Shown in pieces: positions 3,440 through 24,308 of a DNA stretch of 64,000 nucleotides. Both the position numbers and the translations under genes were made by a program. Within the stretch, counting starts at the first letter, position 1, and each line of letters starts with the position of its first letter. The notes beneath the pieces are model-generated. The model was not told the DNA's origin, searched no databases, and was given only the letters and a program-made list of their open reading frames with translations. The DNA is from a virus (taxonomy: Duplodnaviria > Caudoviricetes), in IMG/VR virus record IMGVR_UViG_3300020042_012633, positions 1 through 64,000 of that record, one strand, 5' to 3'.

Positions 3440-4154
3440 TTAGATAAACTCAATTGTATTAGTTTCTTTATCCCAATCAAACGTCATTGGCTTTTGAGTG
3501 TACTCGTAACTCTCATTCAATACTGAAGCATTAAAGAAGTGTGTACCATCTATAAACTCATAACCATATCCTGAATGAATGTGACCACAAACATGAATTT
3601 TAGGTCTTAGTCTCTCAATTCTTTCTGCTAGTAACTCACATCCTAAACCATCCCACTCTCTTCCTTTTACTGTATCTAAAGTACCAAATGCAGGACCATG
3701 AGTAATAAGAATGTCTGTGTTGTCAGGAATTGCTTCCCACTTTCCTGCTAATTCAATTCCATTTTTTGGAAGATTAAATGCCCAAGAATAGAATTCTGGT
3801 TGCCAAGGTGAACCATAAATACGAATGTTATCTTCTGGGAAGTCTCCATTTGGACCATCAAAGTACATTGTTACTTGCTCGTCTTGAAGATAATCGATCA
3901 TTGGATAGTCCTTCAAATATCCTTTTACTACTTCAGGTTCAAGTTCAAACAATCGATCATGATTACCTGCAATGAAGAATTTATCATTGTATCCTTTAGT
4001 GATTGAGAACCAAGTACAGAAATCATGGATATCATTTTTATTGTATCCTGAGTTCATTATGTCTCCTGCAGATAAGAATATCCCCTCCAGGTAAATCTGT
4101 TAGGGGAATTAATCCATGTCTTGTATGTGTGTCTGATAATACTGTTATTCTCAT
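3440..4154 (-). pseudogene. Calcineurin-like metallophosphoesterase, frameshifted near 4070
   Basis: ATG at 4154 gives MRITVLSDTHTRH..GGDILI, then the frame shifts to AGDIMNSG..IAGNHD..LITHGP..HVCGHIH; net 2-nt loss; real lesion or sequence error. Confidence 0.8.
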
Positions 4155-4847: not shown

Positions 4848-5450
4848 TTAGTCCCACCAATTTCTAATGTTTGTTTGTAATACTTTAAATAATAACTTAT
4901 GAGCTCTTTCAACATTCATATGTCCTATGCTCATTGCTATGAAGTGCTTATCATCCTCTCTTCCTTTTATGGGAGCAAATCCTTCACCATTCATAACTCT
5001 TCTATAAATGTTTGGATACTTTTTAAAGTACTGATCGTACTCCTCCCAAATGTTTTCACTCTCCCAAGTTGAATATCCTTCCTTACCCTCACATGGTTCA
5101 AACCAATGTCTGTCTTTTGCATAATCCATATACTCTAGGTCGTAATAGCTGTCCTGGAGTTTTTGCATTAAGTTTATACATAGATTCATTCTTTGGGCAT
5201 CGTACTGGGCTCTTGTGTGTCTGTCGTTGCTTCCAATGTATTTGGATTGAGCTTTTAGTTTGTGTTGTAGCAGTCTAAAGATATAATCATGATCCCAATT
5301 CCTATCTTTCCAGATAATTGGAAACCAATAGATGATATTCTTTATTCCGTGTTTAAGGAACTTGTGGTAATATCTTCCATCAAACTTCCACCATAGAGAT
5401 ATTTTATTCCAAAGGTTTAGTTTTGGTCTGTCTTTAAAAAAATCTTTCAT
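4848..5450 (-). CDS. Hypothetical phage protein (200 aa, WKDRNWDHDY motif)
   Basis: Long ORF, aromatic-rich, ends WWD. Confidence 0.8.
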   Translation of the reverse strand: MKDFFKDRPKLNLWNKISLWWKFDGRYYHKFLKHGIKNIIYWFPIIWKDRNWDHDYIFRLLQHKLKAQSKYIGSNDRHTRAQYDAQRMNLCINLMQKLQDSYYDLEYMDYAKDRHWFEPCEGKEGYSTWESENIWEEYDQYFKKYPNIYRRVMNGEGFAPIKGREDDKHFIAMSIGHMNVERAHKLLFKVLQTNIRNWWD

Positions 5451-5569
5451 TAGTATTCGTCTTTAATATATTTGTAAATCATATAACCTCCTGCTACTAT
5501 TATAATAACTACCCCTAAGGTAGTTGCTGTCATTAGCGTTACTGCTAAAAAATCTAAATATGTTTCCAT
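5450..5569 (-). CDS. Small membrane peptide (39 aa)
   Basis: METYLDFLAVTLMTATTLGVVIIIVAGGYMIYKYIKDEY; stop overlaps next ATG. Confidence 0.55.
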   Translation of the reverse strand: METYLDFLAVTLMTATTLGVVIIIVAGGYMIYKYIKDEY

Positions 5570-5570
5570 C

Positions 5571-5984
5571 TTATTTCTTTTTAAATTGTTCAAACCATTC
5601 TTCCATATATTCTAAGTAAGCACTACCATAAGCATCATCCTCTTCTATTTGAGAATTTCCACCTGCGATAAAAGCCTCTCTCATATCTTCCTCACTATAA
5701 CTTCTTTCTTGTTGCCATTTAGCACCTTCACTAAACATATCTTTCCAATATCCTGCATCTTTTGGTGGATGATAAGGATATTTTTTCCACAATAATTTAT
5801 TACCAGCTTCTTCAGGTCCACAGTCACAAGTTGTAGTATGACCACAATAACATTTTGTTTCTTGATACAATCCTAATTGCTCATCTTGTTCCATCATATC
5901 AATAAGTTTTTGCTTCTGAATTAATTTCTTTACTCCTTCCATTTTTTCTTCATTCCAGATTTGTTGTGGTTGTATTTCTTTCAT
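5571..5984 (-). CDS. Hypothetical protein with CYCGHTTTCDC motif
   Basis: 137 aa; Cys/His cluster suggests a small Zn site. Confidence 0.7.
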   Translation of the reverse strand: MKEIQPQQIWNEEKMEGVKKLIQKQKLIDMMEQDEQLGLYQETKCYCGHTTTCDCGPEEAGNKLLWKKYPYHPPKDAGYWKDMFSEGAKWQQERSYSEEDMREAFIAGGNSQIEEDDAYGSAYLEYMEEWFEQFKKK

Positions 5985-5987
5985 AAC

Positions 5988-6098
5988 CTATCTGTTTCTT
6001 ACATACTTACGTATGTCCTGAACCATCATTACCCCTACCACTAGTAATCCTCCTAAAGCGAAAGATGCTCCTATAATTCCTAAAAATAACTGTGCCAT
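5988..6098 (-). CDS. Small membrane peptide (36 aa)
   Basis: MAQLFLGIIGASFALGGLLVVGVMMVQDIRKYVRNR; follows promoter 6122-6152 and AATAAAAGTT-ATG. Confidence 0.6.
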   Translation of the reverse strand: MAQLFLGIIGASFALGGLLVVGVMMVQDIRKYVRNR

Positions 6099-6121
6099 AA
6101 CTTTTATTTTTTATTTATTCT

Positions 6122-6152
6122 TAAATATACTAAATTTATTTTACTTCTCCAA
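6122..6152 (-). promoter_or_regulatory. Bacteroidota sigma70-type promoter
   Basis: TTG-N20-TATATTTA. Confidence 0.75.
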
Positions 6153-6311
6153 CTTTTTAATGCGAGAAGTTTTTAAACAATACAACATATCATCTCCTAT
6201 GTGTTCATACTGTAGACCGTTGATTTCAACCGTTTTTCCGTGTTTCTTAGCTGTTGTAATTGATTTTAGTACACTCGATACATCTTCACACCAAACTCTC
6301 TTTCTTATCAT
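6141..6311 (-). CDS. Hypothetical protein (56 aa)
   Basis: Manual translation MIRKRVWCEDVSSVLKSITTAKKHGKTVEINGLQY...; fills the operon gap. Confidence 0.55.
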   Translation of the reverse strand: MIRKRVWCEDVSSVLKSITTAKKHGKTVEINGLQYEHIGDDMLYCLKTSRIKKLEK

Positions 6312-6316
6312 AACTT

Positions 6317-6970
6317 TTAGTTTATTCTTGCTTCGTGATGATCCTTTGGTAAGGCTAATTTTTTAATTGGTTGCATTTCCATAATTCCAAGTACTTCGTC
6401 CAGTGAAATTGGATCTAATTCATTTCCATCTACTCCAACATCCATTGCTTTGCCCTCTGCCAATCGTAAGTGGTATGGTAAGTGAACGTGACCATGAAGG
6501 TGAATTACATCTTTATTCATATCGTGCCATGAAGCAATTGGATAGTGCATACAAACAAATGTAAAGCTCTGTGTTGTTGCTTTGTTGATTGGCCTTCTTA
6601 CTTCAAGTCTTAGGTATTGACTTACTGAAGAGAATAGTTTTTGTACTCCCTCTTTGTTTCTTTCAATGTGGTGATCGTGATTACCAAGTACCAAGTGAAT
6701 GTTTTTACAAACAATTCTATCTCTGAATTCTTGTATCTTTTCAAATCCTCCAAATGACCAATCCCCTAAGTGAATTAGGATATCATCTTCACCAACCATG
6801 CAGTTGATGTTGTTCACTAGAATATCGTTCATGTGATCAAGTGAATTAAATTCCCTTGTAAGGTTTGACGATCCAATCCAGTTTGTTGTTGCTGAACAGA
6901 TGTTTGAGTGATTGTAATGTGTGTCTGATGTAAAGAACAGTCTTTGTCCTTTTTGTAATTCTATTCTCAT
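6317..6970 (-). CDS. Calcineurin-like metallophosphoesterase (start revised to 6970)
   Basis: Motifs SDTHYNH, LGDWSFG, GNHD, HGHVH; the longer ORF-track start runs through the promoter. Confidence 0.9.
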   Translation of the reverse strand: MRIELQKGQRLFFTSDTHYNHSNICSATTNWIGSSNLTREFNSLDHMNDILVNNINCMVGEDDILIHLGDWSFGGFEKIQEFRDRIVCKNIHLVLGNHDHHIERNKEGVQKLFSSVSQYLRLEVRRPINKATTQSFTFVCMHYPIASWHDMNKDVIHLHGHVHLPYHLRLAEGKAMDVGVDGNELDPISLDEVLGIMEMQPIKKLALPKDHHEARIN

Positions 6971-6987
6971 AACTTTTATTTTATACT

Positions 6988-7021
6988 TAAATATACAAAA
7001 AAAGACCTGCGTAAGCAAGCC
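6988..7021 (-). promoter_or_regulatory. Promoter fused to intrinsic terminator
   Basis: TTG-N20-TATATTTA; hairpin GGCTTGC-TTAC-GCAGGTC plus T7. Confidence 0.8.
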
Positions 7022-7042
7022 TTTTCGTAATTATTTTAACAG

Positions 7043-7113
7043 TTGGATTACAAGGACTCGAACCTAGAAAGACTGCACCAAAAACAGTTGTGTTACCATT
7101 ACACCATAATCCA
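7043..7113 (-). tRNA. tRNA-Gln (TTG)
   Basis: Acceptor TGGATTA/TAATCCA, anticodon arm ACTGT-TTTTGGT-GCAGT, T loop GTTCGAGTC; no encoded CCA. Confidence 0.92.
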
Positions 7114-7417
7114 TTTACTTGCAGGCGACTAGTACTCCAGTCCTTCTGTCCAATTAAGGAACCCATATCCTATACCTAGGTCCTGCTATATTTTTACACA
7201 TCCTTCAAGATAGGAATAATCAAAGTTGTAGTTATGTGAAGAAACATTTTAAATAGATCGGTTATTTCTTCCTGCCAAATCTTCTTGTATTTTATTATAC
7301 TCAACCAACGGAACACTTCTTGTTGTGTTTAGAATCGTCGCATTATAGGCAAATGCTATAACAAGGCGTGAATAATCAATTTTAATTCTATTTGTTGTCT
7401 TTCTATGTGTAAATTCG

Positions 7418-7489
7418 TAGCCCTGCCGGGAGTCGAACCCGACTTTCCAGGATGAAAACCTGGCGACCTAACCGATAGTCGACAGGGCC
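7418..7489 (-). tRNA. tRNA-Glu (TTC)
   Basis: Acceptor GGCCCTG/CAGGGCT, anticodon arm CCAGG-TTTTCAT-CCTGG, T loop GTTCGACTC. Confidence 0.93.
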
Positions 7490-7638
7490 AATTTGGTAGA
7501 GCTTGACCAGAAAATGGTTCATACCTACTCTACCTGACAGGATTTTTTTTATGGCATCCACCAACCTGTAGGATCATTCGTGAGACTAGCTTCCTCCAAT
7601 GATAGTTATCGTCCTAGTGCTAGATCAGATAACTGCTG

Positions 7639-7706
7639 TGATTAAGACAGGAATCGAACCTGTTATCTCCCTTACGATCGGTGCGGCTCCAATCCGCCAC
7701 TTAATC
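7639..7706 (-). ncRNA. tRNA-like element A (truncated anticodon arm, CGT triplet)
   Basis: Acceptor GATTAAG/CTTAATC, D arm GCGG-ATTGGAG-CCGC, T arm ACAGG-TTCGATT-CCTGT; only 19 nt between D and T arms. Confidence 0.7.
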
Positions 7707-7776
7707 CCTATTTAGTAGGATATCGCTTAACCTACGAAGTTGATCAGACTTCTTTTCTATACGAACGATTTTTTTG

Positions 7777-7911
7777 TGGCCAAGGACAGGAATCGAACCT
7801 GTTTGAAAGTGCCAGGTGTGTAATCACTACCCACGAACTTTGGTTTAGTATTATTTAGATTCGCTTCCAAATACGAGTTGGCTTTTTACATCTCCAATCT
7901 GCCACCTTGCC
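7777..7911 (-). ncRNA. tRNA-like element B with 85-nt central domain
   Basis: Acceptor GGCAAGG/CCTTGGC(C), D arm GCA-GATTGGAGA-TGT, T arm identical to element A; structured insert. Confidence 0.75.
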
Positions 7912-8006
7912 ATTTACCGCATGTGCGGTCACTTATCAATCGGTAGCTCCCTCTCGATATCCATCTGTGGGTGTAACACATTTGGTAGAGGGTCGAACTT
8001 TAAAAG

Positions 8007-8076
8007 AGAGCCTGGACAGAATCGAACTGTCTATATGGCGTTTGCAATGCCACCGGTCGCCATTCCCATCAAGCTC
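8007..8076 (-). tRNA. tRNA-Cys (GCA)
   Basis: Acceptor GAGCTTG/CAGGCTC, loop TT-GCA-AA, T arm GACAG-TTCGATT-CTGTC, U73 discriminator. Confidence 0.85.
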
Positions 8077-8093
8077 ATAATCTTTCTTATACT

Positions 8094-8124
8094 TAAATAT
8101 AAGGACTTATTTTCTAATATGCAA
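8094..8124 (-). promoter_or_regulatory. Promoter driving the tRNA/ncRNA island
   Basis: TTG-N20-TATATTTA, about 18 nt upstream of tRNA-Cys. Confidence 0.8.
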
Positions 8125-8135
8125 CTAAAATGTAT

Positions 8136-8167
8136 AAAAAAACCCGAATCTTTTTTTGATCCGGGTC
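8136..8167 (-). terminator. Intrinsic terminator
   Basis: CCCGGATC-A7-GATTCGGG followed by a T run, downstream of 8199..8573. Confidence 0.85.
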
Positions 8168-8198
8168 TAATAGGTTGTAGTTAGAATTCCGTATCTAG

Positions 8199-8573
8199 TT
8201 ATCTTCTTATTGTTTTTTTGATGTACTCTATTAGATCATACATAGCATATCCTACCATTCCTGGTTCAGTTGATGGACCGTTCTCCCATTCCTGGAATAT
8301 GCCTGCAATTGCTTTTATGTGTTTGTCAAGTTCAGGACCCATTGCCTCAACGTATCCCCCTGTATCAAACTCGTCATCTGCTTCTTCGTGATACTCGTTT
8401 ACCTTCTTCTTGTTCTTTTTGTATTCGATGTTATCAATCTCATCGTCAACCCATTCCTTTTCTTTCTTACCTAATTGGCTGTAGTTCATTTTAAATTCTT
8501 TCTGAGCTACGCTATCTTTACTTGATTCGTTTAACGATTCTTTTATAATTTTAACTAGGTCTGATTTTTTCAT
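8199..8573 (-). CDS. Hypothetical protein with MKKSDLVKIIKESLNE leader (candidate head-packaged protein)
   Basis: 124 aa; own TATTTAT motif at 8590-8596 and own terminator. Confidence 0.8.
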   Translation of the reverse strand: MKKSDLVKIIKESLNESSKDSVAQKEFKMNYSQLGKKEKEWVDDEIDNIEYKKNKKKVNEYHEEADDEFDTGGYVEAMGPELDKHIKAIAGIFQEWENGPSTEPGMVGYAMYDLIEYIKKTIRR

Positions 8574-8635
8574 TGTTATATATTTTAATATAAATATGTA
8601 ATGTTTTTAAAAAGAATTACCGTTCTTTTATTAAT

Positions 8636-8917
8636 TTATCCTTTTAATACTTGTTTGTTATTTGTAATCTTTGCCTCCAATTTATCTAGTCTGGAATCTA
8701 TTGCTGAGTAGATATTGTTTGTAATTTGATCTACTCTGTCGATCTCTTGATCAATCCTACGATTGAGCATTTCATTATTTTGGCTTGCTTCTAATTCTAA
8801 AACTGATACAGCCTCTGCCAATTCCTTTACTTGTTTTACTAACCTAACCACTGCCATAATTCCTAATATAATAAGAACTGCACCTGCACCTAGACCAAAT
8901 GTTACTAGTGTTTCCAT
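8636..8917 (-). CDS. Membrane-anchored coiled-coil protein (start revised to METLVTFG)
   Basis: N-terminal TM helix then heptad-rich region; enclosed by a 13-bp perfect inverted repeat. Confidence 0.8.
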   Translation of the reverse strand: METLVTFGLGAGAVLIILGIMAVVRLVKQVKELAEAVSVLELEASQNNEMLNRRIDQEIDRVDQITNNIYSAIDSRLDKLEAKITNNKQVLKG

Positions 8918-8959
8918 AATTTTTGTTTTTAAATTCAAAGAACGGTAATCTTTAATTTG

Positions 8960-9084
8960 TAGTTAGGACGGGACTCGAACCCGCACCGCATCCGCACTCC
9001 TGCGTTGATCAATTTTTTTATTAACGTGAGGATCGCTTAACCTCAGTGCAGTTTTTTTGTGTCTACCAATTCCACCACCTAACT
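8960..9084 (-). ncRNA. tRNA-like element C with 74-nt central domain (Leu-type D arm)
   Basis: Acceptor AGTTAGG/CCTAACT, D arm GTGGAATTGGTAGACAC, T arm GCGGG-TTCGAGT-CCCGT. Confidence 0.8.
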
Positions 9085-9235
9085 TCCTTACCAATCTGGG
9101 TCTTTCTTGTAGCCTTCCGAGTTATCAGTTACGGGGCTTGTACAAGAGCAGGGTTTCTGGTTTGCTGTCGTAATATAAACCCTTTTTCTTTTTGTGTTCA
9201 GCCTAACAGCATGCATTGGTAATTAAAACATGTAC

Positions 9236-9397
9236 TTATTTTACAGTTGTAGTGTCTACTGCTGTGGTATCTACACTTACTGAATCAACTTGTACTGAGG
9301 TTGAGTCTACTGTTGTTAGTCTTGCTGGTGCTTCAACTTTTTTACAACTTACTACTACTAAAGCCACTAAGGCTAATGCTAAAAATACTTTTTTCAT
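9236..9397 (-). CDS. Small Bacteroidota-type lipoprotein (53 aa)
   Basis: Not in ORF track; MKKVFLALALVALVVVS-CKK..; lipobox; follows promoter 9424-9454. Confidence 0.8.
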   Translation of the reverse strand: MKKVFLALALVALVVVSCKKVEAPARLTTVDSTSVQVDSVSVDTTAVDTTTVK

Positions 9398-9423
9398 TTT
9401 TGTTTTTATTTATTTATTATACT

Positions 9424-9454
9424 TTAATATACGAAATACTTTTTAAGTATCCAA
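9424..9454 (-). promoter_or_regulatory. Bacteroidota sigma70-type promoter
   Basis: TTG-N20-TATATTAA. Confidence 0.75.
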
Positions 9455-9462
9455 ACTTTTTG

Positions 9463-9669
9463 TTAGAAACTTACTGTAGAAAGAACTTTAATAACAGTTG
9501 TTTCTGGATCAAAATCATTTCCTAATTGTTTTGCAACTAGTAAATCAATTGATGTTCCATTTTTTTGCTCAATCCATAATTCTTTTAAGAATTTAGTTGA
9601 ATTGATCTCATTTGTATCTACATCTCTTGTGATTGTGAATACTGCTACGTTTACTTGTTTTGGTGTCAT
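9463..9669 (-). CDS. Hypothetical protein
   Basis: 68 aa, packed operon. Confidence 0.7.
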   Translation of the reverse strand: MTPKQVNVAVFTITRDVDTNEINSTKFLKELWIEQKNGTSIDLLVAKQLGNDFDPETTVIKVLSTVSF

Positions 9670-9674
9670 TTTTT

Positions 9675-9860
9675 TTACTGGTGTTGGTGTTGATGAGTAT
9701 TAATTGTTGAATTTCCTTGTAGGGTTAATCCTGAACCATCTGTAATGGTTGTGATAGGTGTTCCTGAATATATGGTGCCTGGGGTACCTGAGTATGCACC
9801 TGATGTTGTTCCTCTTCCATCTGAGAATAATCCTGATAGGTTTGTTGTTGTTTCGTTCAT
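9675..9860 (-). CDS. Hypothetical Thr/Gly-rich protein
   Basis: 61 aa. Confidence 0.55.
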   Translation of the reverse strand: MNETTTNLSGLFSDGRGTTSGAYSGTPGTIYSGTPITTITDGSGLTLQGNSTINTHQHQHQ

Positions 9861-9864
9861 ACTA

Positions 9865-10254
9865 TTATAATCTATAATTTTGAATATCTGAAATTGAAAT
9901 AATTATCTCAGAAGAATCTTCTCCGTCTAAGTTTTGTTTGCCATCGAAAAACTCTTTTAGGAATTGCTGTCTGTACAATAAAACATCTCCCGTATAAGTT
10001 CTTGTACTTATTGCTTTCTTTGCAACCTTCTCGTTGCACGTTACAGCTGCTTGTGCAACTTCTTTTCCTAACCGTGCCCCAGCTGCGTATCCTAAATAAT
10101 CAAATAAAGATACTGTTGGTTCTTGTTTTATTTCCATTTCATAAACTTTAATTGGGTTCTCATCGATGCTATCAATTAATTGAAGTACATCTGATTTTAA
10201 AAAAACAGAACTTGGTGACTTTGCCACTTTCTCTAATACTAATTTCTTTTCCAT
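9865..10254 (-). CDS. Hypothetical protein
   Basis: 129 aa; downstream of promoter 10273-10303. Confidence 0.75.
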   Translation of the reverse strand: MEKKLVLEKVAKSPSSVFLKSDVLQLIDSIDENPIKVYEMEIKQEPTVSLFDYLGYAAGARLGKEVAQAAVTCNEKVAKKAISTRTYTGDVLLYRQQFLKEFFDGKQNLDGEDSSEIIISISDIQNYRL

Positions 10255-10382
10255 AATGATTTTATTTTACATTTAATATAGGAAAAATATCCTGCAATGG
10301 CAACTAAAAGTGCTGGTAAAGTTATCATGCTTGGATGATTTTCTCCACACGTTCCACAAATGTGATTTATAACTTCTCCCAT
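10239..10382 (-). CDS. Small membrane peptide with HxCGxCGExHP motif (47 aa)
   Basis: Manual translation MGEVINHICGTCGENHPSMITLPALLVAIAGYFSYIKCKIKSLWKRN; ATG 2 nt after upstream stop. Confidence 0.55.
   Translation of the reverse strand: MGEVINHICGTCGENHPSMITLPALLVAIAGYFSYIKCKIKSLWKRN
10273..10303 (-). promoter_or_regulatory. Promoter embedded in the upstream small CDS
   Basis: TTG-N20-TATATTAA. Confidence 0.7.
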
Positions 10383-10384
10383 GT

Positions 10385-10693
10385 TTAGTCGACTGTGGTC
10401 ATTGTGTTCATCTTATTCTGAATATCATTCCAAGTACTTATGTATTCTTGAATTGTTTTAAAGTGTTTGTTACCTGACATAGGCAATAACTCTCTTGCTA
10501 CAACTTTAAGTGCATGGTTGAATGTAGATGGATAGCATATTGTTTTAAAATAAGCTCTGTCTTTTTCTCCTCTAGTAACTCTTTCGTAAACTGTGTATCC
10601 TCCTGAGGTTGCTTTTACGATGAAGAATGGTTCCATGATTGGATCCTCAATAAGTGTATCCCCTTCTGGGATGGTGTTTGGATTTCGTAACAT
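10385..10693 (-). CDS. Hypothetical protein
   Basis: 102 aa. Confidence 0.75.
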   Translation of the reverse strand: MLRNPNTIPEGDTLIEDPIMEPFFIVKATSGGYTVYERVTRGEKDRAYFKTICYPSTFNHALKVVARELLPMSGNKHFKTIQEYISTWNDIQNKMNTMTTVD

Positions 10694-10706
10694 TTGTTTT
10701 TTGTTT

Positions 10707-10970
10707 TTAGTTTAAAATAAAATCTGTTAATTCCTGTTGACCCATTCTTCCAGATTGTGACTTAACTCTTTGTCCGTCTTCTACAATAACTGTACAAGGA
10801 ATACCTCTTACTCCGTATTGTCCTGTTAGGTTGTCTGTGTCTTGGTCAATGTTTACTTCTACAAATTCAATACCCTCTTGTAGTTGCTCCTTTACTTTTT
10901 CAAAGGTAGGTGCATATTGATTACATGGTCCACACCAAGGTGCCCAGAACTTAATTACTTGCTTTGCCAT
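10707..10970 (-). CDS. trxA: Thioredoxin
   Basis: WAPWCGPC active site, GIPC cis-Pro motif, 87 aa. Confidence 0.93.
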   Translation of the reverse strand: MAKQVIKFWAPWCGPCNQYAPTFEKVKEQLQEGIEFVEVNIDQDTDNLTGQYGVRGIPCTVIVEDGQRVKSQSGRMGQQELTDFILN

Positions 10971-11113
10971 TATGCTCCTTTTGCTTTATAGTAATCTGCT
11001 TTTGAGAACTTTCCCGATGGTTGTTCTTTTAATTCTACGGATGGTTGCTTCTTTAAGGTAACAAGCCACTCCATTAACGACTGATAATTCTTCTTTGGTG
11101 AATTCTTTGACAT
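10970..11113 (-). CDS. Small basic hypothetical protein (47 aa)
   Basis: MSKNSPKKNYQSLMEWLVTLKK...; stop overlaps the trxA ATG; follows promoter 11136-11166. Confidence 0.6.
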   Translation of the reverse strand: MSKNSPKKNYQSLMEWLVTLKKQPSVELKEQPSGKFSKADYYKAKGA

Positions 11114-11131
11114 AAATTTAATTTTTGTTTA

Positions 11132-11335
11132 TTATTTAATATAAGGAATTTCTTTTAGATATCCAAGCATTATCTGATTATTTATTCGATTTTCCATTGT
11201 AGTGTAGTCGTGTATCTCTGTAAGATAGTTGAACTGCTCCATTTGAAAGTCCTTGGAATCATTTAGACAAGTCTCTTCCCACTTATCTGTGAGGTGATAT
11301 ATCTTGTTTTTAAATTTGAAAGAGTGCTTATCCAT
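11132..11335 (-). CDS. Hypothetical protein
   Basis: 67 aa; follows promoter 11339-11369. Confidence 0.7.
   Translation of the reverse strand: MDKHSFKFKNKIYHLTDKWEETCLNDSKDFQMEQFNYLTEIHDYTTMENRINNQIMLGYLKEIPYIK
11136..11166 (-). promoter_or_regulatory. Promoter inside the 3' end of 11132..11335
   Basis: TTG-N20-TATATTAA. Confidence 0.65.
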
Positions 11336-11338
11336 ACT

Positions 11339-11369
11339 TAAATATAAGGAAAAGTATTGATATATGCAA
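11339..11369 (-). promoter_or_regulatory. Bacteroidota sigma70-type promoter
   Basis: TTG-N20-TATATTTA. Confidence 0.75.
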
Positions 11370-11374
11370 CTTTT

Positions 11375-12745
11375 TTACAGTTGAAGTTTAGATCCTATTG
11401 TAATTCCGAAGGTTGTTTTAGATTCTGGATTAGTATTTGCTACTACGTTGCCTCCTAGATTGGCTTTGAATCTTTTTGTTAATGGAAAATCAAAATTAGA
11501 CCCTACAATATAAGTAAAGTACTTTGTAATGGTAAATGTATTTGGAATTGCTGTGTAACTTATTGGAGAGAGTGAAGCTGCTACCATTGGAGAAATAACT
11601 ATTCTTTTTACTGGGAATGGTTTAGTCATAAAGAATGTTGCTGAGGGTGATAGCATTACGTCTCTTCCTATAAAAATTGCTGTGAATCCAAATGCATATC
11701 CAGCTACTAATCCTTTTTTTAATAAAAATACATCATTTGCTCCTAAGGAAACAACCTCAGTTCCAAACATAGACATTACTGTTATACTTTGTCCTGATAT
11801 TTTATAAATTGATCCCTTTACGTAGTATCCTCCTATTTCCTCTCCTTGTATTTTTATTGGTATTCTTTTATCATGATTGAATAAAATTGTAGTTTTAGAA
11901 GCTGATAGTGAGAATTGTTTTAAGTTTGACCATATCATTGAGTTAGCACTATAGGAAGTTTCTCCTGTGAGGGAGCTTTGGGACATTCCAAAAGAAGCTA
12001 CTTGTGAGAAAGTGCCATCTGCATTTTGATTGTTCATCATATTTGCAGCAATCATTACAGGATTGGTTGATTGTTGTTTTTTCTTACTCTCTTCTTTTTT
12101 CTTTTCCTGTTTCTTTTCTTCTTTTTTTTCTTCCTTCTTCTCCTCTTTCTTTTCCTCTTTTGTTTCTTCTTTCTTTTCTTCTTTCGATTCGGATTTGGTT
12201 TCAGACTTTGATTCAGATTTGGTTTCGCTTGTGCTCTCTGTTTTACTTTCAGTTGGAGCAGGAGCTGCTTCACTTGTAGTTGAACTTGGAGCAGGTGCTT
12301 CTACCGTTGGAGCCTCTACTGTTGGTGCTTCTACTGTTGGTACGGGTGTACTAGTAGCAGCGGAGGCAGCTGCAGAAGCTGCTGCACTTGCACTTGCTGC
12401 TGCTGCTTGAGTTGCTGCTTGAGTAACAGACTCGGTAATTGTTTTTGTAATTATTGCTTTGGTTTCTTCTAGAATGACTTCTGCTGGTGGAGTTGTTGGA
12501 CATGGATTTAGTGAAGTATACCATTGGTAGGTTACTTCTAGCCAAGCCTGCAATGCACCTGCTTGTGCTTGCTCTGCTGTCATTATAGTATACTTACTGT
12601 AGTATGTAACTACAGTTTGTCCTTGAGAAGCTATAGTAAATACAAGTACCTCACCTGTACACCTATCTGTGTAGGTTTGAATTACATTTTGACCATAGGT
12701 GCAAAATCCTACAAGTAGGAGTAGTATATGAAGTACTTTTTTCAA
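11375..12745 (-). CDS. Exported protein: N-terminal domain, Ala/Thr/Ser and EEKK linker, putative C-terminal outer-membrane beta-barrel
   Basis: Signal peptide ending YG-Q; low-complexity linker; alternating amphipathic strands in the last ~225 aa. Confidence 0.6.
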   Translation of the reverse strand: MKKVLHILLLLVGFCTYGQNVIQTYTDRCTGEVLVFTIASQGQTVVTYYSKYTIMTAEQAQAGALQAWLEVTYQWYTSLNPCPTTPPAEVILEETKAIITKTITESVTQAATQAAAASASAAASAAASAATSTPVPTVEAPTVEAPTVEAPAPSSTTSEAAPAPTESKTESTSETKSESKSETKSESKEEKKEETKEEKKEEKKEEKKEEKKQEKKKEESKKKQQSTNPVMIAANMMNNQNADGTFSQVASFGMSQSSLTGETSYSANSMIWSNLKQFSLSASKTTILFNHDKRIPIKIQGEEIGGYYVKGSIYKISGQSITVMSMFGTEVVSLGANDVFLLKKGLVAGYAFGFTAIFIGRDVMLSPSATFFMTKPFPVKRIVISPMVAASLSPISYTAIPNTFTITKYFTYIVGSNFDFPLTKRFKANLGGNVVANTNPESKTTFGITIGSKLQL

Positions 12746-12747
12746 GT

Positions 12748-13467
12748 CTAGTTAGTAAAAACTTGTTTTTGAATCATTCTCTTAACAACTTTAGCTGTAG
12801 CTGATTCTAGTGCTTTCTTAGTTGCAGTACCAATACTTGATTGATTAAATTTTACTTCTTCTAAGTTTTCATTATTTAATAAAGTAACCTCTCTTGTTGT
12901 AATTGATTTTCCTAATCCTGAACCTGTCATGTATGTTCCAGATTGTGAGTCTACCATCTTAACTTGAAGTCCCAGTCTTGTTACCAAGCTATTTTTTACT
13001 CCATCTTTTAGATTAATTGTTTCATCTTCTGAGATTGAAAAATCATATACCTCTATGTAGCAGAAGTATTTTGCTAGTACAATATTTCCTTTTAGTTCAA
13101 TTTTCTCTGTAGATAATCCTTTCTGAGATGCTTTGTATTGATTAACCATTCTATCTTTGATAGCATCTTTTGTTTCTACGAATTCGAATCTGAATGTTTC
13201 TTCTAGAAAAGCTATTACGATATTGGTAAGTCCAAGACCTACTCTATAATCTCCAAGTTCTGGATATTGATCTATTACCTCTTTACTAACTCCTATTTCA
13301 AGTAGGGCAACAGGAATGGGCTTGCCATTATATTCAGGAATGGAATATATTGATTCCTTACCTTCAAATCCTGCTTGATAGTCCTCTGTTGTTGTTTTGC
13401 CTATTACTTGTCCAAAAGTAAAATGGCCTATAAGAATACAGGCCATTAATATTAATTTCTTTACCAT
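12748..13467 (-). CDS. CsgG-like (curli secretion channel family) exported protein
   Basis: Signal peptide; VALLEIG..LGLTNIVIAFLEETFRFEFVE..YFCYIEVYDF..LGLQVKMVDSQSG..GSGLG resembles the CsgG/TolB-N-like fold. Confidence 0.65.
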   Translation of the reverse strand: MVKKLILMACILIGHFTFGQVIGKTTTEDYQAGFEGKESIYSIPEYNGKPIPVALLEIGVSKEVIDQYPELGDYRVGLGLTNIVIAFLEETFRFEFVETKDAIKDRMVNQYKASQKGLSTEKIELKGNIVLAKYFCYIEVYDFSISEDETINLKDGVKNSLVTRLGLQVKMVDSQSGTYMTGSGLGKSITTREVTLLNNENLEEVKFNQSSIGTATKKALESATAKVVKRMIQKQVFTN

Positions 13468-13486
13468 AAGTGTATCCTTATTTATA

Positions 13487-13807
13487 TTACCAATCTAATC
13501 CGTCTTCTTTTCTTTTCTCTGTTTCAGTTTTCTTAGGCTTAGCTACTACAGCTGGTGCTGCTTGTGAAGGAGATGCTTTCTCCTTAATGATAATAGTTTT
13601 ACCTGCTGCTTGTTGAGATTGTTGGTTTGTGTTTGTAATGTTGATTACAGGTGCTGCTGCAGGAGCTGCTACTTCTGTTTTGTCCTCTCCATTGTCTCCA
13701 GTTAATTTATTTGTAACGTACCCTCCTACTCCTAGAGTGATAGTACTTATTAATCCAATTAAGATACTTTTAATTGAACCTCCTCCTGCTTCTGCTTCTT
13801 CTGCCAT
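13487..13807 (-). CDS. Membrane-anchored low-complexity protein
   Basis: TM segment near the N-terminus, AAPVINITN linker, basic tail ending DW. Confidence 0.7.
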   Translation of the reverse strand: MAEEAEAGGGSIKSILIGLISTITLGVGGYVTNKLTGDNGEDKTEVAAPAAAPVINITNTNQQSQQAAGKTIIIKEKASPSQAAPAVVAKPKKTETEKRKEDGLDW

Positions 13808-13814
13808 TTTGTTT

Positions 13815-14198
13815 TTATTTAGTTGTTGTGTCGGACATTGAGAACGATTCTCTTCCTATTATTTTATTATCTTCAGTTTGTAATTCAACAGTATAAGAGC
13901 TAACTGGTAAAGCTGATACATAGATGCTTAGGATGTTATCACCTTCTTTTCCTATTACTTTTTCTTGACTTACTAAGTCTCCAGTAAAGTCATAAATTTT
14001 AATTTTATAAGTACCTGCTGTTGCTAATTTACTATTAATTTTTACTTGTTTGTCTACTATGTAACTCTCTAATTTAAGTCCCTGAGTTTCTGTTATTACT
14101 AAGGAGTTGTCTATTTGTTGTGTTGGAAGATTCTCTAGTGCTGGATCTTGAGAGCATGCTACCAAGGTTAGTGCTATTAGTGCTAATATTTTTTTCAT
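13815..14198 (-). CDS. Lipoprotein with T9SS C-terminal-domain-like Ig fold
   Basis: Lipobox LVA-C; YKIKIYDFTGDLV..ILSIYVSALPVSSYTVEL pattern resembles type A Por sorting domains. Confidence 0.6.
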   Translation of the reverse strand: MKKILALIALTLVACSQDPALENLPTQQIDNSLVITETQGLKLESYIVDKQVKINSKLATAGTYKIKIYDFTGDLVSQEKVIGKEGDNILSIYVSALPVSSYTVELQTEDNKIIGRESFSMSDTTTK

Positions 14199-14199
14199 G

Positions 14200-15834
14200 T
14201 TATTGTATTTTTAAGATTACTTTAGTTCCGTCTTGCTTAACTGCTTCTGCTAGTTTAAAATAAATTAACCCTGCTGTGTTTGTTATTGGAGTTTTTGTAT
14301 TAAATATTAATTTATAAGGAGTTCCAGTTTTAATTGCTGTTAGTCCTGTTGAATCTAAACTACCAATGTAAAGAGTATTGCCTCTTGGAGTAGCAAAGTT
14401 TGTTGCTTGATTACCTGTATCAAACTTTACTGAATCGAATTCAAGTACTGATTGGTCATATTGTATGTTGAATTGGATACCTGCTAGTTGTTCCATTGTT
14501 AAATTAGTTGTCAACACTACTTTACCATCTACTAATGAAGTTGATACTTCTAAGTTATAGGTTTCAGCATTTGCAGCTATCTTAGCTTTAGAAGCAATCG
14601 TTCTCATAGCAGATGAATTATAGTTTGTTGATCCTTGTGCTGTAGGAACGTATGAGTGTGAAAAATCTACGTCTCCTTGAAATCCATGTACAAAGTCAAA
14701 TACTTTTTCTGCATCTGTTGGTCTGATGTATTGATTCTGTCCGAAGTAGTACTGGTCTGTTGATGCTCCGTAATTCTCTATTCTACCCCAAACATTTTTA
14801 CCACCATTAGCAGATGAAGTAAACCAACCACTTGTATTAGTTCCTGTGATATGATTTAACATTACATATGAATCATCAAAATCAACAACACCATCATTTG
14901 TAACCTCTCCTAAGAGATACTGAATTTGATAACTAAAAATATTGGCAATATCTTCAGGACCTGTTGTAGAAGCTCCAATGGCTTGTTTAAAGTTTAAAAA
15001 TGCATCCGATACTGTTACTACATCATTTAACCAACTCCATGCTATGTTATTATCAACCTCAACATAAACGTGATAATCAACATCATTTACTAATCCTGGT
15101 ACAGCTGCAGTTCCTGTTGAATCAAAATATCCTTGAGCTACTGTTTGTTGTGTTCCAGTATGTTCTATTCTATATGTGTAATATGCTTTATTTGGAACGG
15201 GTGTATATAATCTAAGGAAAACAGTACCAGCATCTCCTCCTTTTACAGGTGATAATGCAAGAGTTTGATTTTGAGCTACAACATCATAAATGGTTGTTGG
15301 GGATTGTTTTTGAAACTTTGCCCAGTTTAACATAGTTACTTTACTGTAGTCTGTATATCCATAAGGAAATTTATCTTTAATTCTAAATCTTACATAAATC
15401 CAAGGTGTTGAAGACGGAAGTGTTTTAGTAGATTGAATTGTAATTCTTTCTACTGACCAATCTGGATTAGATGGATATGATCCATTTGCTCCAGTATTCC
15501 AAGTGTGCTGTTTAGTTAAGTTATCAATACCATATCTTGTATCAGGATTGAACTTGTAACCATCCCAGTGATTTAATGTAGTTTGTATACCTGTTATCTG
15601 TCCTGTAGGAGTAAAGGTATGGTCTACTTTTTCTAGTAACTTGTTATTGTATTGGTAATCAAATTGAACTAAGTTGGGAGTGGCTGATTGATAGATCCCC
15701 TCAAACTTAATTGTAATAATGTCTCCTACATTAAACCCATTGGTATTAGGGGTTATGCAGCTTTGAGATAGATAGGCGCTTTGTCCAAAGGACATTAAAG
15801 GTAACAGTGCCAGTAGCACTAATAATTTTTTCAT
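14200..15834 (-). CDS. Exported multidomain protein with cohesin-like domains and a dockerin/EF-hand-like motif
   Basis: Signal peptide; VGDIITIKF..VQFDYQYNNKLLE and LAGIQFNIQYDQSVLEFDSV cohesin-like patterns; GEVTNDGVVDFDD Ca-binding loop. Confidence 0.6.
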   Translation of the reverse strand: MKKLLVLLALLPLMSFGQSAYLSQSCITPNTNGFNVGDIITIKFEGIYQSATPNLVQFDYQYNNKLLEKVDHTFTPTGQITGIQTTLNHWDGYKFNPDTRYGIDNLTKQHTWNTGANGSYPSNPDWSVERITIQSTKTLPSSTPWIYVRFRIKDKFPYGYTDYSKVTMLNWAKFQKQSPTTIYDVVAQNQTLALSPVKGGDAGTVFLRLYTPVPNKAYYTYRIEHTGTQQTVAQGYFDSTGTAAVPGLVNDVDYHVYVEVDNNIAWSWLNDVVTVSDAFLNFKQAIGASTTGPEDIANIFSYQIQYLLGEVTNDGVVDFDDSYVMLNHITGTNTSGWFTSSANGGKNVWGRIENYGASTDQYYFGQNQYIRPTDAEKVFDFVHGFQGDVDFSHSYVPTAQGSTNYNSSAMRTIASKAKIAANAETYNLEVSTSLVDGKVVLTTNLTMEQLAGIQFNIQYDQSVLEFDSVKFDTGNQATNFATPRGNTLYIGSLDSTGLTAIKTGTPYKLIFNTKTPITNTAGLIYFKLAEAVKQDGTKVILKIQ

Positions 15835-16304
15835 AGTTTTAGTTTTTCAATTAATTGTTCACACAACTTTTTAAGTGCTGATGAAACGTTTGTTTGAGAA
15901 AACTTGCCTCCTGAATCTATAATCAATGTTGCTGTTGAAATAGATTTTGCTTGGCCTTTTACTACAACTGTTTTTAATTCCTTCCCGTCTAATAACAGTT
16001 TACCTTGTGCAATTATTTCAGTTACTTCTACAGTATTACCGTAGACTGCTAATTGCATGCTTGTACTCTTTACATCAAAGTAGAGAATATCTATCGTTAA
16101 AATTTTTTGTGATTGTGGGTCCAAATCGTACCCTTTTTCTTGAATTACTTCTTCAAGAATGTTTTTGATACCGAAGGCTAGGTCTCTATTACCTGCCAGC
16201 GGTCCCATTACAATATTATTTTTAATATCACCTATTTTTATAGACTGTTGTGCAGAAACACTTATTCCAAATAGGAGAGATATTAACATAAAAAAAAGTT
16301 TCAT
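15831..16304 (-). CDS. Exported protein, probable CsgG-fold paralogue (start revised to MKLFF)
   Basis: Signal peptide ..VSA-QQ; C-terminus KGQAKSIST..KFSQTNVSSALKK aligns by eye with GLGKSITT..KFNQSSIGTATKK of 12748..13467. Confidence 0.6.
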   Translation of the reverse strand: MKLFFMLISLLFGISVSAQQSIKIGDIKNNIVMGPLAGNRDLAFGIKNILEEVIQEKGYDLDPQSQKILTIDILYFDVKSTSMQLAVYGNTVEVTEIIAQGKLLLDGKELKTVVVKGQAKSISTATLIIDSGGKFSQTNVSSALKKLCEQLIEKLKL

Positions 16305-16363
16305 ATCTACTATATAAAGGTTAAAAAACATTTATAAAACAGTTAATATAAAACTTCTTTAAA

Positions 16364-16370
16364 ATAAATA
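16364..16370 (-). promoter_or_regulatory. Second-class (phage late-type) promoter motif heading the exported-protein operon
   Basis: CCTATTTATT on the coding strand, same motif as before structural genes. Confidence 0.55.
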
Positions 16371-16378
16371 GGAGGTAC

Positions 16379-16834
16379 TTACAATAACTCCTCCTCGATG
16401 CGATTACCTGCAACTGCTATCTCATGCCAGTAGACTCGTCCGTCTTCAATTGCAGTCTTTATATTTCTTTGCTTGCCCATTAGTGTTGAGTTTCCAGACT
16501 TTACTTCTATAAAGTGTACCTCACACTTGTTCTTGCTATCTGTATGTGTGAACCCCACATAATCAATTGGCATCCCTAGAAACACTACATCCTCAGGTGG
16601 TACTGGGAAGTTGCTCATGAAGGGAACAAAATGCTCAATAGTCTTACCCCAATTTACTGCTGAGGATCTGAATGTTGAATCTTTCTTTACTTTTGCTTTC
16701 TCCACTATGTGGGAAGCATCTTTTTCAGCTAGTTCTATTTTTAGTTTAATTATTTCTCCTTTGAGATGATTTCCTTGAATAACTATTATAAATCCTAGTG
16801 CGATGCAGGTTACTGCCAGTATAAATGTTACCAT
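16379..16834 (-). CDS. Endonuclease related to archaeal-type Holliday junction resolvase, N-terminal membrane anchor
   Basis: GKTIEHFVPF..FLGMPIDYVGF..FIEVKSG..L..KQ PD-(D/E)xK pattern; start revised to avoid nrdA overlap. Confidence 0.8.
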   Translation of the reverse strand: MVTFILAVTCIALGFIIVIQGNHLKGEIIKLKIELAEKDASHIVEKAKVKKDSTFRSSAVNWGKTIEHFVPFMSNFPVPPEDVVFLGMPIDYVGFTHTDSKNKCEVHFIEVKSGNSTLMGKQRNIKTAIEDGRVYWHEIAVAGNRIEEELL

Positions 16835-16845
16835 GTTTTTAGTTC

Positions 16846-18555: not shown

Positions 18556-18564
18556 AAAATTAAA

Positions 18565-19542
18565 TTAAAATGCGTTGTCCCAATCCATATGCCCTTTGGC
18601 ATAATTTGTTACTCTTGATGCGAAGAAATCTGTATGCTGTTTTCCTGCTACTACAGCATCAAACCATAACATTTGTTTCAAAGCTCCTTTATCGATTTGA
18701 TCTGAAGGTATTAATGGTTTCAATCCTAAATCTCCCATCTTAGTGTTTACTCTGTGTTTGATAAAGTTTTTCAACTCGTCTTTGGTTAAGTTTTCCAAAT
18801 CCCCCATTTCAAATATCTTATCGATAAAATTGAATTCTAGTTGAAGAGCAAGGGTTGCTGCTTCTCTAATATCGTTGATAAGTCTTTCTGTTTTTAATTC
18901 TGGGTATTCTTTCATTAGTGTTCTGAATAACCAGCATCCTGCTTCTGAGTGAAGTGATTCATCTCTTACAGACCATTCAACTATTTGTCCTACTCCTTTT
19001 AGTTTGTTTCTCATTTTAAATGAAAGTAGTACTGCAAAAGAAGAGAATAGATTTACTCCTTCAGTAAAGGCTGAAAATATTGCTAGAGATCTAGCTGCTT
19101 CATGCCAGTCTGTTTCTCCGTTATTTCCATCTCTAACATCCATTAAAGATTGAATTTTAGCTGCAGTTGATTCATCTTCTAGGAATTCTGCAAAATTATC
19201 CAATCCTAACTGCTCATTTAGTAGAGCATATGCCTCAGCATGAATTGTTTCAAAGGCTCCAAAGGTAACTGCCATCATAATAACCTCAGGTTTTCTAAAC
19301 CATTTTGTTACTAAAGATGTCCAGTAATCATTTACAACTGTTTCTGTTTGAGCAAATCCTTTTAGGATTCCTCCTATAACATTTTTTTCGTGTGGTTTAA
19401 GATTTGAGTTCCAATCTGTTACGTCTTGAGACATTGGAACTTCTGTATGTAACCAGTGAGCCTGGTGCGCTTTGAGCCAGTAATCGTGGGCTTGTGGATA
19501 TTCAAAGGGCTTGTAAACTATGCGTTCGTCTTTTAGACTCAT
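18565..19542 (-). CDS. nrdB: Ribonucleotide reductase class Ia beta subunit
   Basis: FAQTE, ETIHAEAY (radical Tyr), EGVNLFSSF, RDESLH; HTDFFA near C-terminus. Confidence 0.97.
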   Translation of the reverse strand: MSLKDERIVYKPFEYPQAHDYWLKAHQAHWLHTEVPMSQDVTDWNSNLKPHEKNVIGGILKGFAQTETVVNDYWTSLVTKWFRKPEVIMMAVTFGAFETIHAEAYALLNEQLGLDNFAEFLEDESTAAKIQSLMDVRDGNNGETDWHEAARSLAIFSAFTEGVNLFSSFAVLLSFKMRNKLKGVGQIVEWSVRDESLHSEAGCWLFRTLMKEYPELKTERLINDIREAATLALQLEFNFIDKIFEMGDLENLTKDELKNFIKHRVNTKMGDLGLKPLIPSDQIDKGALKQMLWFDAVVAGKQHTDFFASRVTNYAKGHMDWDNAF

Positions 19543-19595
19543 ATTTGTTTTTTTAATATTATTTTGTAATTAAGACTGTAAGAATAAATAGCATT

Positions 19596-20948: not shown

Positions 20949-20968
20949 GTAACTTATTTTATTATAAC

Positions 20969-23069: not shown

Positions 23070-23071
23070 TC

Positions 23072-23908: not shown

Positions 23909-23941
23909 AATGTAACTGATTTAATTAAAACTTTTATTTAT

Positions 23942-23972: not shown

Positions 23973-23983
23973 CTATTGTTGCG

Positions 23984-24304: not shown

Positions 24305-24308
24305 TTGT

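Follow-up and report, generated by a model that had tools for sequence, protein, structure and literature searches.

Element C, a tRNA-Leu-like phage element with a conserved insert at the place of the anticodon arm

tRNA-shaped RNAs and Element C

In engineered 'tRNA scaffold' RNAs, the anticodon arm of a transfer RNA (tRNA) is replaced by a cargo, and the tRNA body serves for processing and stability. Among natural RNAs, mascRNA, at the 3' end of MALAT1, and the tRNA-like units with microRNA (miRNA) hairpins of murine gammaherpesvirus 68 do not decode and recruit tRNA-processing enzymes. Here we describe Element C, a tRNA-like element of 125 nucleotides (nt) at positions 8960-9084 on the minus strand of a stretch of viral DNA (Caudoviricetes). 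This stretch, below called the window, is the first 64 kb (64,000 nt) of the 72.5-kb viral record IMGVR_UViG_3300020042_012633, whose completeness is estimated at about 44%. The genes of the window lie on the minus strand, with a cluster of tRNAs and tRNA-like elements at about 7040-9090. An earlier note on this DNA had proposed that Element C is a tRNA-Leu(GAG) interrupted at position 37/38 by 43 nt, which proteins would remove or cleave to give a working tRNA. We think it fairly probable that Element C is instead a small RNA that does not decode, with the chassis of a tRNA-Leu and a cargo in place of the anticodon arm.

Judged by analogy, the architecture of Element C appears most like that of the engineered tRNA scaffold and partly like that of mascRNA-type signals. 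As in the engineered RNAs, the cargo sits at the anticodon arm; unlike them, Element C is natural, phage-encoded and of the Leu type, and its cargo is conserved. The mascRNA and gammaherpesvirus 68 units are likewise tRNA-shaped and non-decoding and define the ends of neighboring RNAs, and Element C starts 3 nt after an abundant RNA, but they are eukaryotic or viral-nuclear and have their cargo beside the unit, whereas that of Element C lies inside. Phage T4 carries RNAC and RNAD within its tRNA cluster. In a passage of one article these are called small stable RNAs 'of yet unknown functions' (PMC9697503). As stable non-tRNA RNAs among phage tRNA genes, they resemble, by that description, the RNA proposed for Element C. 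In the open-access literature and in Rfam 15 we found no description of the element, of its hairpin sequence or of a natural bacterial or phage tRNA-scaffolded RNA.

Scaffold and cargo of Element C

Element C retains the acceptor stem, D arm and T arm of a tRNA. On the minus strand, the 5' acceptor strand AGTTAGG (9078-9084) pairs with CCTAACT (8967-8961), which is followed by a discriminator A and no encoded CCA (8960-8967 in all). The Leu-type D arm is GTGG-AATTGGTAG-ACAC (9059-9075) and the T arm GCGGG-TTCGAGT-CCCGT (8968-8984), and both are part of the match to the Rfam tRNA model. With class II tRNA-Leu (RF00005), Element C has in common the 7-bp acceptor stem, G18 and G19 in the D arm, the TTCGAGT T loop, the discriminator A and an arrangement of the A15/U48 type; it differs in having 69 nt for the anticodon and variable arms and seven A's for base 26. 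The Leu-type origin suggested in the earlier note is backed by the D arm, which is one base off that of the normal phage tRNA-Leu(TAA) of the near-identical locus L002. So is its argument that the A7 run and the short variable arm do not suit an ordinary tRNA: seven A's stand at a one-base site, and 7 nt are left for the class II variable region.

The Rfam tRNA model gives Element C 34.9 bits against a gathering score of 29 (expectation value, E, 0.0014 for the whole window). The alignment spans only the acceptor, D and T arms, with their conserved loop bases, and skips 69 nt against 17 model positions of the anticodon arm. A 5-bp, 7-nt anticodon arm with U33 and an anticodon, one base past the D stem, is absent, and A7 follows there instead. 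Element C passes the Rfam score but lacks this defining arm, so we do not file it as a tRNA. ARAGORN calls three tRNAs in the window and leaves Element C uncalled, as it does the element in 9/9 homologous loci.

A blastn search with 8900-9200 against 50,697 phage records gave no match, and one with an Element C homologue gave 60 records, none above 25% query cover and all ordinary tRNA arms. The Flavobacterium myophage vB_FspM_immuto (NC_055915.1, our locus L001) matches 5000-25000 at 85% identity over 41% of the query (megablast), a result that only places the window close to this phage. A flanking protein used as a lead gave the near-identical locus L002 and the related locus L003. Patterns derived from the insert found 10 viral stretches with the first pattern and 11 viral and 52 metagenome stretches with the second; of the 52, only those with 35-nt spacing and tRNA-like flanks were taken as family, the remainder being chance matches in coding sequence. 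The resulting alignment, A1, holds 18 distinct homologues from viral and metagenome contigs, with duplicates removed (L129, a duplicate of L158, was dropped). A covariance model, R1, applied to 100 loci around the upstream RNA described below, added only L367, a divergent member at 96.3 bits that lies outside A1; all its other matches were to the scaffold alone. The homologues sit in contigs with otherwise unrelated flanks, and clustering of the open reading frames (ORFs) that lie up to 1.5 kb from the element in 11 loci revealed none common to them beyond close relatives, except spurious ORFs overlying the element.

Taken singly, the minimum-energy fold of Element C is ordinary (z = -1.28), so the case depends on the comparison of homologues. 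Across the 18 sequences of A1, changes on both sides occur in 6/7 acceptor pairs, 1/3 D-stem pairs and 2/5 T-stem pairs, and in the D arm a U-A has become C-G in 4/17. The scaffold cells are 99.1% paired, compared with 30-47% in slid controls, and the observed double changes, counted in 10 scaffold pairs overall, were reached in 0/500 shuffles. At the level of aligned sequences, these patterns show the tRNA-like scaffold of Element C to be under selection. The cargo is nearly invariant: 13/67 of its columns vary against 19/30 of those in the paired scaffold, with mean pairwise identities of 0.95 and 0.80, respectively. At the discriminator position, 16/18 homologues have A and 2/18 have T. In 5/18, a hairpin is inserted at one site of the D loop, in three unrelated kinds, one of which recurs with an altered stem in L422, a chassis with a different cargo.

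The cargo opens with the first A-rich run, A7, at the tRNA's single base 26 (9052-9058), which is nearly invariant (A/T-A6 in homologues), followed by CTGCAC (9046-9051), the 5' strand of what had been read as the anticodon stem. Next comes hairpin H3, TGAGG-TTAAGCGAT-CCTCA (9027-9045), which is predicted by RNAalifold, is invariant in the 18 homologues apart from one G-U, and contains the anticodon-like GAG. After it lie CGTTAAT, a second A7 (9019-9013) and the palindrome TTGATCAA (9012-9005), together 9005-9026. RNAalifold pairs GTTAA with TTGAT around this second A run, with G-U changed to A-U in six homologues and to U-U in two. TGATCA was present in 10/10 matches of an insert pattern that left it unspecified, and A7 was likewise not asked for. 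At the position of the class II variable arm is a small hairpin, Hv, CGCA-GGAG-TGCG (8993-9004), also predicted by RNAalifold, and before the T stem a variable linker, GATGCGGT (8985-8992), is the least conserved segment (mean pairwise identity 0.71).

The letters on which the intron proposal was built (acceptor, D arm, A7, stem, CT-GAG-G and insert) are all present on the minus strand of 8960-9084. In that proposal, CTGCA (9051-9047) faces TGCGG (8996-8992) and encloses CT-GAG-G (9046-9041) and then 43 nt (9040-8998). The stem pairs in 17/18 homologues, eight with C>U opposite G, as does CTGCAC with GTGCGG. The insert keeps the same place in all of them, as an interrupted tRNA would, and a G37 would be fitting for a tRNA-Leu that reads CUN. 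However, the stem loses 2/5 pairs in L128, where the rival local hairpin Hv stays paired through a double change from A-U to U-A, and in L367 neither structure is intact, Hv there having a C.A mismatch. The RNAalifold consensus prefers Hv over the CTGCA/TGCGG stem, and the single-sequence fold of Element C from the window pairs CTGCA with a second TGCGG copy that closes a four-way junction and is absent in 6/18 members. Two further helices had been proposed within the insert. The one said to mask the anticodon, GAGG-TTAAGCGAT-CCTC (9044-9028), is present and, except for one G-U, invariant within the family; the other, CGTT (9026-9023) with AACG (9006-9003), is present too, but its second pair is broken in 8/18 homologues.

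The insert was compared with described tRNA introns. Like bulge-helix-bulge introns it is extra sequence of the anticodon region, nominally at 37/38. Such introns have their splice sites in two 3-nt bulges with a 4-bp helix between them; in both the RNAalifold consensus and the single-sequence fold, one of the nominal sites (9041/9040 and 8998/8997) falls where the stem of H3 meets its loop and the other in the tetraloop of Hv, and the consensus fold has no bulge-helix-bulge. Unlike removal of a protein-spliced intron, removal of the insert from Element C would not leave a normal tRNA. A group I tRNA intron has a P1-P9 core of about 200 nt or more, against 43 nt (by the borders of the earlier note) or 69 nt (by those of Rfam) here. 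The statement that the insert is too short for group I therefore holds, no intron family matching at E<=10. A permissive Rfam 15 search (E<=10 in 6500-10500; E<=1 in 20 loci) found no family on the Element C cargo, or on the spacer motif and upstream RNA described below.

Metatranscriptome assemblies contain the element with its insert. From a list of 24 runs with six RNA libraries, the contigs of four RNA libraries were compared with the region. Contigs X16 (8969-9117, depth 17) and X18 (8969-9155, depth 49), from two studies, cross the insert unspliced, and X15 and X17 contigs also cover parts of it. No splice joint at 9041/8997 was reported among these assembled contigs, which can miss rare forms; the sole joint listed was 7980/8082. 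Depth peaks over the RNA upstream of Element C, at 9106-9186 (147 in X17, 69 in X18 and 40 in X16), and is low or nil over the coding flanks, a profile that argues for RNA over carried-over DNA without proving it. Both the X16 and the X18 contig terminate at 8969, a position in the T stem that is 9 nt short of the predicted 3' end; in one of them an Illumina adapter abuts it.

The splicing machinery that the intron proposal called for was sought in the phage record itself, host enzymes lying outside that scope. tRNA_int_endo, RtcB, RNA_ligase and Rnl1 (models PF01974, PF01139, PF09414 and PF09511) were unmatched in the 72.5-kb, about 44% complete record, where the result for Rnl1 is to be read with its control, PF09511, having matched nowhere. 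Among the 63 window ORFs, Pfam likewise gave no RNA ligase, splicing endonuclease or CCA enzyme. The window does hold two calcineurin-like metallophosphoesterase genes (6320-6970 and 3443-4057, minus strand), one of them directly downstream of tRNA-Gln, as in immuto. Enzymes of the metallophosphoesterase superfamily can remove 2',3'-cyclic phosphates, and a role of these genes in RNA end healing is a guess.

Hairpin H3 in a free-standing spacer motif, and other cargos on the chassis

Hairpin H3 also occurs outside tRNA-like elements. A scan with AGG-TTAAGCGAT-(0-2 nt)-CCT gave at least 120 viral stretches; in at least 76 of these viral loci (61 distinct among the matches listed), H3 forms the 3' end of a longer motif, some 60-100 nt in length. 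In 5' to 3' order this spacer motif consists of C-A(4-8)-TCG, an optional hairpin, AA, a hairpin H2, two bases, H3, and two bases with AA. Usually a tRNA immediately precedes it, and 5-8 nt separate its end from the following tRNA or transfer-messenger RNA (tmRNA); often it directly precedes tRNA-Leu, and in some loci a terminator takes the place of the downstream tRNA. The A run and TCG, which were absent from the scan pattern, lie within 100 nt in 76/79 loci judged real, the exceptions being L022 (TCA), L100 (a long insertion) and L059 (cut off). H2 stems vary widely, and the H2 loop holds a palindrome of at least 4 nt in 50/61 distinct motifs and of at least 6 nt in 30/61, compared with means of 21.9 and 4.8 and maxima of 34 and 12 for shuffled loops; more than 12 different palindromes were seen.

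In the free-standing motif, the two pairs formed by the bases that flank H3 show covariation (T-A 31 and C-G 28; G-C 46, A-T 9 and G-T 5, among the matches listed), so the triplet at the GAG position is there a TAG or CAG stem strand. This speaks against GAG as an anticodon, since the hairpin of which it is the 5' strand recurs outside tRNAs, at no fewer than 76 sites. We had considered reading H3 as an anticodon arm whose loop has 9 nt and dropped this because the same loop occurs outside tRNAs. The loop consensus in the free-standing motif is TTAAGCGATRT (L007-L126), and TCG-Y of the motif is complementary to GCGA of the H3 loop. When the motif was compared with genomes of 185,579 species, one contig only was found, a narrow test made with a single pattern, and we read the motif, on this sequence evidence, as probably phage-specific. 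A blastn search with it against the 50,697 phage records gave just three matches, at chance level.

Element C and the spacer motif share H3 as AGG-UUAAGCGAU(RU)-CCU, that is, 12 identical bases and CCT, with a loop of 9 nt in Element C and of 11 nt in the motif. In Element C, however, H3 comes first, the second A7 and the palindrome come after it, and UCG is absent as such. As the order differs, we regard the insert as a rearranged relative of the motif and not as a member. The window has its own copy of the free-standing motif at 7715-7776 (minus strand), with C-A7-TCG, an H2 whose TGATCA loop holds TGATCAAC, and the H3 loop TTAAGCGATAT. It lies between two odd tRNA-like units. On one side is Element B (7778-7911, minus strand), which reaches 17.6 bits in a search of its own genome and has a bulge in its acceptor stem as well as some 60 inserted nt; its slot is taken in the near-identical L002 by a normal 86-nt tRNA-Leu(TAA). 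On the other is a 'tRNA-Thr(CGT)' called by ARAGORN (7639-7706, minus strand), with 9 nt in the anticodon arm against 13 expected by Rfam and a stem of 2-3 bp; it is probably another non-decoding tRNA-like unit, and the spacer motif lies directly upstream. Parts of 7000-9400 without RNA contigs (e.g. 7648-7890) are uninformative, as neither Element B nor the spacer motif is present in the relatives contained in the RNA runs.

The chassis of Element C also carries other inserts. A scan for a Leu-type D loop followed, after 48-78 nt, by a T loop gave at least 113 stretches (L212-L324), with at least 90 distinct inserts of 45-75 nt, 81/90 of them flanked by at least 6/7 acceptor pairs. At least 81 of the 90 inserts lack a canonical anticodon arm. 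Nine were flagged for an anticodon-arm-like start, and five of these, forming one group, resemble real class II tRNAs with very long variable arms. In the group whose acceptor is TCTGGGG, a real anticodon arm (loop CTGTTTA or CTGTTAA) is combined with a variable arm of 29-41 nt, so that a Leu-like body bears a GTT anticodon. At least 33 of the 81 arm-less inserts sit on a chassis that, in its acceptor, D and T arms, is nearly identical to the chassis of six Element C members; the acceptor AGTCAGG/CCTGACT of these six is often found identical on other-cargo chassis, of which L038 and L016 were seen in full. Given the at least 81 arm-less inserts on Leu-type chassis, Element C is one cargo type of a larger set. 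L229, from the same scan, resembles a tRNA-Leu(TAG) whose anticodon loop is enlarged by an insert of about 21 nt, and taken by itself would fit an interrupted tRNA.

In immuto, an 86-nt 'tRNA-Cys' (L001 11247-11332; NC_055915.1 20246-20331) is syntenic to Element C and is uncalled by ARAGORN. It looks like a different tRNA-like chassis with a cargo, and has relatives in L005, L400, L349 and others. A tentative extension of these observations is that uncultured phages use the tRNA-Leu chassis as a general scaffold on which small structured RNAs, drawn from a large and fast-changing library, are displayed and expressed to act in trans. Equally tentative is the idea that the Element C cargo represents, in rearranged form, a copy of an undescribed pseudoknot or palindromic-loop module that is widespread in phage tRNA arrays. 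Possible trans roles would include decoys or antidotes against host RNA-targeting defences (e.g. RNA antitoxin mimics) and dimerising regulators.

Proposed action of Element C and alternative explanations

In the mechanism that we propose, the retained acceptor, D arm (G18 G19) and T arm would let the transcript fold into the tRNA L-shape, RNase P would cut its 5' end and the tRNA 3'-end machinery would trim its 3' end. The product would be a defined, stable RNA of about 125 nt from which nothing is spliced out. Its tRNA part would serve as processing signal and stabiliser. The cargo of about 70 nt, with A7, H3 (loop UUAAGCGAU), the second A-rich segment, the palindrome UUGAUCAA and Hv in that order, would be the working part, a module that binds a protein or another RNA sequence-specifically and may act in trans. 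GAG would then be a stem strand of H3, (U)GAGG-UUAAGCGAU-CCUC(A). The near-invariance of the cargo and its kinship with the free-standing motif suggest such sequence-specific recognition. The H3 loop could form an H-type pseudoknot with the segment past the second A run, and the palindrome could pair with a second copy. The 'stable decoy' offered in the earlier note comes close to this stable non-decoding RNA. Element C may be charged with leucine, because bacterial leucyl-tRNA synthetase does not read the anticodon; the D-loop insertions in 5/18 members argue, as far as the alignment goes, against a conserved need for charging.

Several points weigh against a cargo-bearing, non-decoding RNA. 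The mature 125-nt RNA, its cleavage by RNase P and its binding partner are predicted from sequence only, and no conserved neighboring protein gene points to a partner. The contrast in conservation between cargo and scaffold is partly inflated, the family having been found by patterns inside the insert. The RNA evidence consists of assembled contigs only, in which ends and rare spliced forms are invisible and DNA carry-over is possible. The junction that closes the cargo is ambiguous: CTGCAC fits either TGCGG copy, and subfamilies differ. In the RNAalifold prediction, the palindrome is partly taken up by a weak stem, and this would be an obstacle to kissing. As for the pseudoknot, scans for loop variants (6 + 5 stretches, with two real motifs) gave no compensatory support: the variant in L210 is wobble-compatible, that in L204 gives a C.A mismatch, and TCA for TCG in L022 is uncompensated. 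In Element C itself, the partner strand of the pseudoknot is interrupted by the palindrome.

Upstream of Element C, and 3 nt from it, lies a structured RNA (9085-9222, minus strand) with the closing stem TTACCAAT/ATTGGTAA and the crossing pairings GCTGT..GGGTTT..ACAGC..AAACCC. It is conserved in L001 (11115-11245), L003 and L005, and the RNA (GCTGT..AAAAAGGGTTT..ACAGC..CAGAAACCCTG..GAAAGACC) and circularly permuted variants of it occur in at least 117 viral loci (L325-L441), often beside tRNAs. RNAs of this type were also seen inside phage tmRNA in L391 and L334 and inside the spacer motif in L100. This neighbor brings up a cis-acting punctuation, in which the tRNA shape recruits RNase P to 9084/9085 and so makes the 3' end of the upstream RNA (9222-9085), as at mascRNA/MALAT1, while the cargo is secondary. 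As a full account of Element C we think this unlikely. The 3-nt gap would fit, and in the RNA assemblies depth is greatest over the upstream RNA. In relatives the upstream RNA is followed by a different tRNA-like element (the immuto type, L005, L400 and others) or by a real tRNA, and among the matches listed a T-loop-like motif lies at most 230 nt downstream in 49/101 distinct upstream-RNA contexts. However, at least five Element C loci (L128, L132-L134 and L136) have no tRNA within 1.5 kb, 8/11 contexts have no such upstream RNA in the roughly 110 nt inspected, and a pure signal needs no almost invariant 70-nt cargo. Punctuation is compatible with a non-decoding, cargo-bearing Element C, for which a plausible second role would be to mark where RNase P forms the 3' end of the abundant upstream RNA.

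We consider it less likely still that the module of H3 and A run is a new self-cleaving ribozyme or a ligand-sensing aptamer that processes or gates tRNA precursors. Small pseudoknot aptamers of the preQ1-I type have a hairpin, an A-rich tail and a loop-complementary segment, and the order in Element C is alike. Many of its bases are invariant, a pseudoknot is possible, the module is flush with tRNA ends, and the two metallophosphoesterase genes lie near the tRNA cluster. Precedent comes from theta ribozymes, which are HDV-like (hepatitis delta virus) and sit at phage tRNA 3' ends; in these, the cleavage-site G is within +/-5 nt of the tRNA 3' end, and the fold is a nested double pseudoknot P1-P2-P3-P1.1-P4 with the catalytic C in J4/2 (PMC10879173). 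Like the spacer motif, they are small structured RNAs that abut tRNA genes of uncultured phages, many with Bacteroidota hosts (PMC10879173). Unlike them, the spacer motif starts with C-A7-UCG, runs in the order 5' strand, H2, H3, and has no HDV-family match in Rfam; we had tried an HDV-like fold and dropped it because this helix order does not fit. The C-A7 spacer, moreover, separates the tRNA end from the motif. No ribozyme or riboswitch family, those of preQ1-I and other pseudoknot riboswitches included, matched in Rfam 15 at E<=10 in 6500-10500, or at E<=1 in the 20 loci. Cleavage within Element C would halve the scaffold, yet RNA contigs span it, and the pseudoknot is without compensatory support. 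Two other candidates were rejected: a Y-RNA-like element, as the weak Rfam YrlA matches lay elsewhere, and a tmRNA, as Element C has 125 nt with a D stem and no tmRNA match, while the same searches found tmRNAs in other loci. A tmRNA has about 260-400 nt, its tRNA-like domain lacks a D stem, and it carries a tag reading frame and pseudoknots.

It is improbable that Element C is a decaying, functionless tRNA-Leu pseudogene into which a piece of the neighboring spacer motif has recombined. The fast turnover of phage tRNA slots, as in that of Element B, and the other defective tRNA-like elements of the window would suit decay, and the frequent position of the motif before tRNA-Leu would ease formation of a chimera. 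Against this stand the compensatory changes in three stems across 18 distinct sequences with otherwise unrelated flanks, the nearly invariant cargo, and an RNA well represented in metatranscriptome assemblies. Least probable of all, and by our estimate very improbable, is the 43-nt intron or mask, against which speak the stem that breaks in L128 and L367, the unspliced RNA contigs, and a chassis that accepts D-loop hairpins and carries many unrelated arm-less inserts.

tRNA finders skip genes such as Element C or label them as odd tRNAs, and a layer of phage non-coding RNA may thereby be invisible; the syntenic element of immuto is annotated as 'tRNA-Cys'. If the combination of chassis and cargo is real, nature has reached the tRNA scaffold trick of RNA engineering, and phages use it with many cargos. 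If the chassis does serve a whole library, a new class of phage non-coding RNA genes would be hidden among 'odd tRNAs'. In addition, two structured RNA motifs that are widespread in phage tRNA islands come to light, the spacer motif and the upstream RNA, and both bear on the ways in which lytic phages process and exploit tRNA clusters.

Other conserved non-coding stretches accompany these elements. One, acacttacctatccgaaggttatgatga..., lies downstream of Element C or the spacer motif in L134, L136 and L036, and another, cgatgttggatagctaccaaatgaacttagtgg..., downstream of the element in L128 and L132. Upstream of the Element B slot, about 80 nt (7915-7995, minus strand) are conserved as aagttcgaccctctaccaaatg...gcacatgcggtaaa; this stretch is common to immuto (L001 11830-11915) and L002 (2970-3058) and is covered by RNA contigs at 7891-7971 with depth up to 70. 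At the far end of the window, a single ORF of 4,666 codons occupies 49789-63786 (minus strand).

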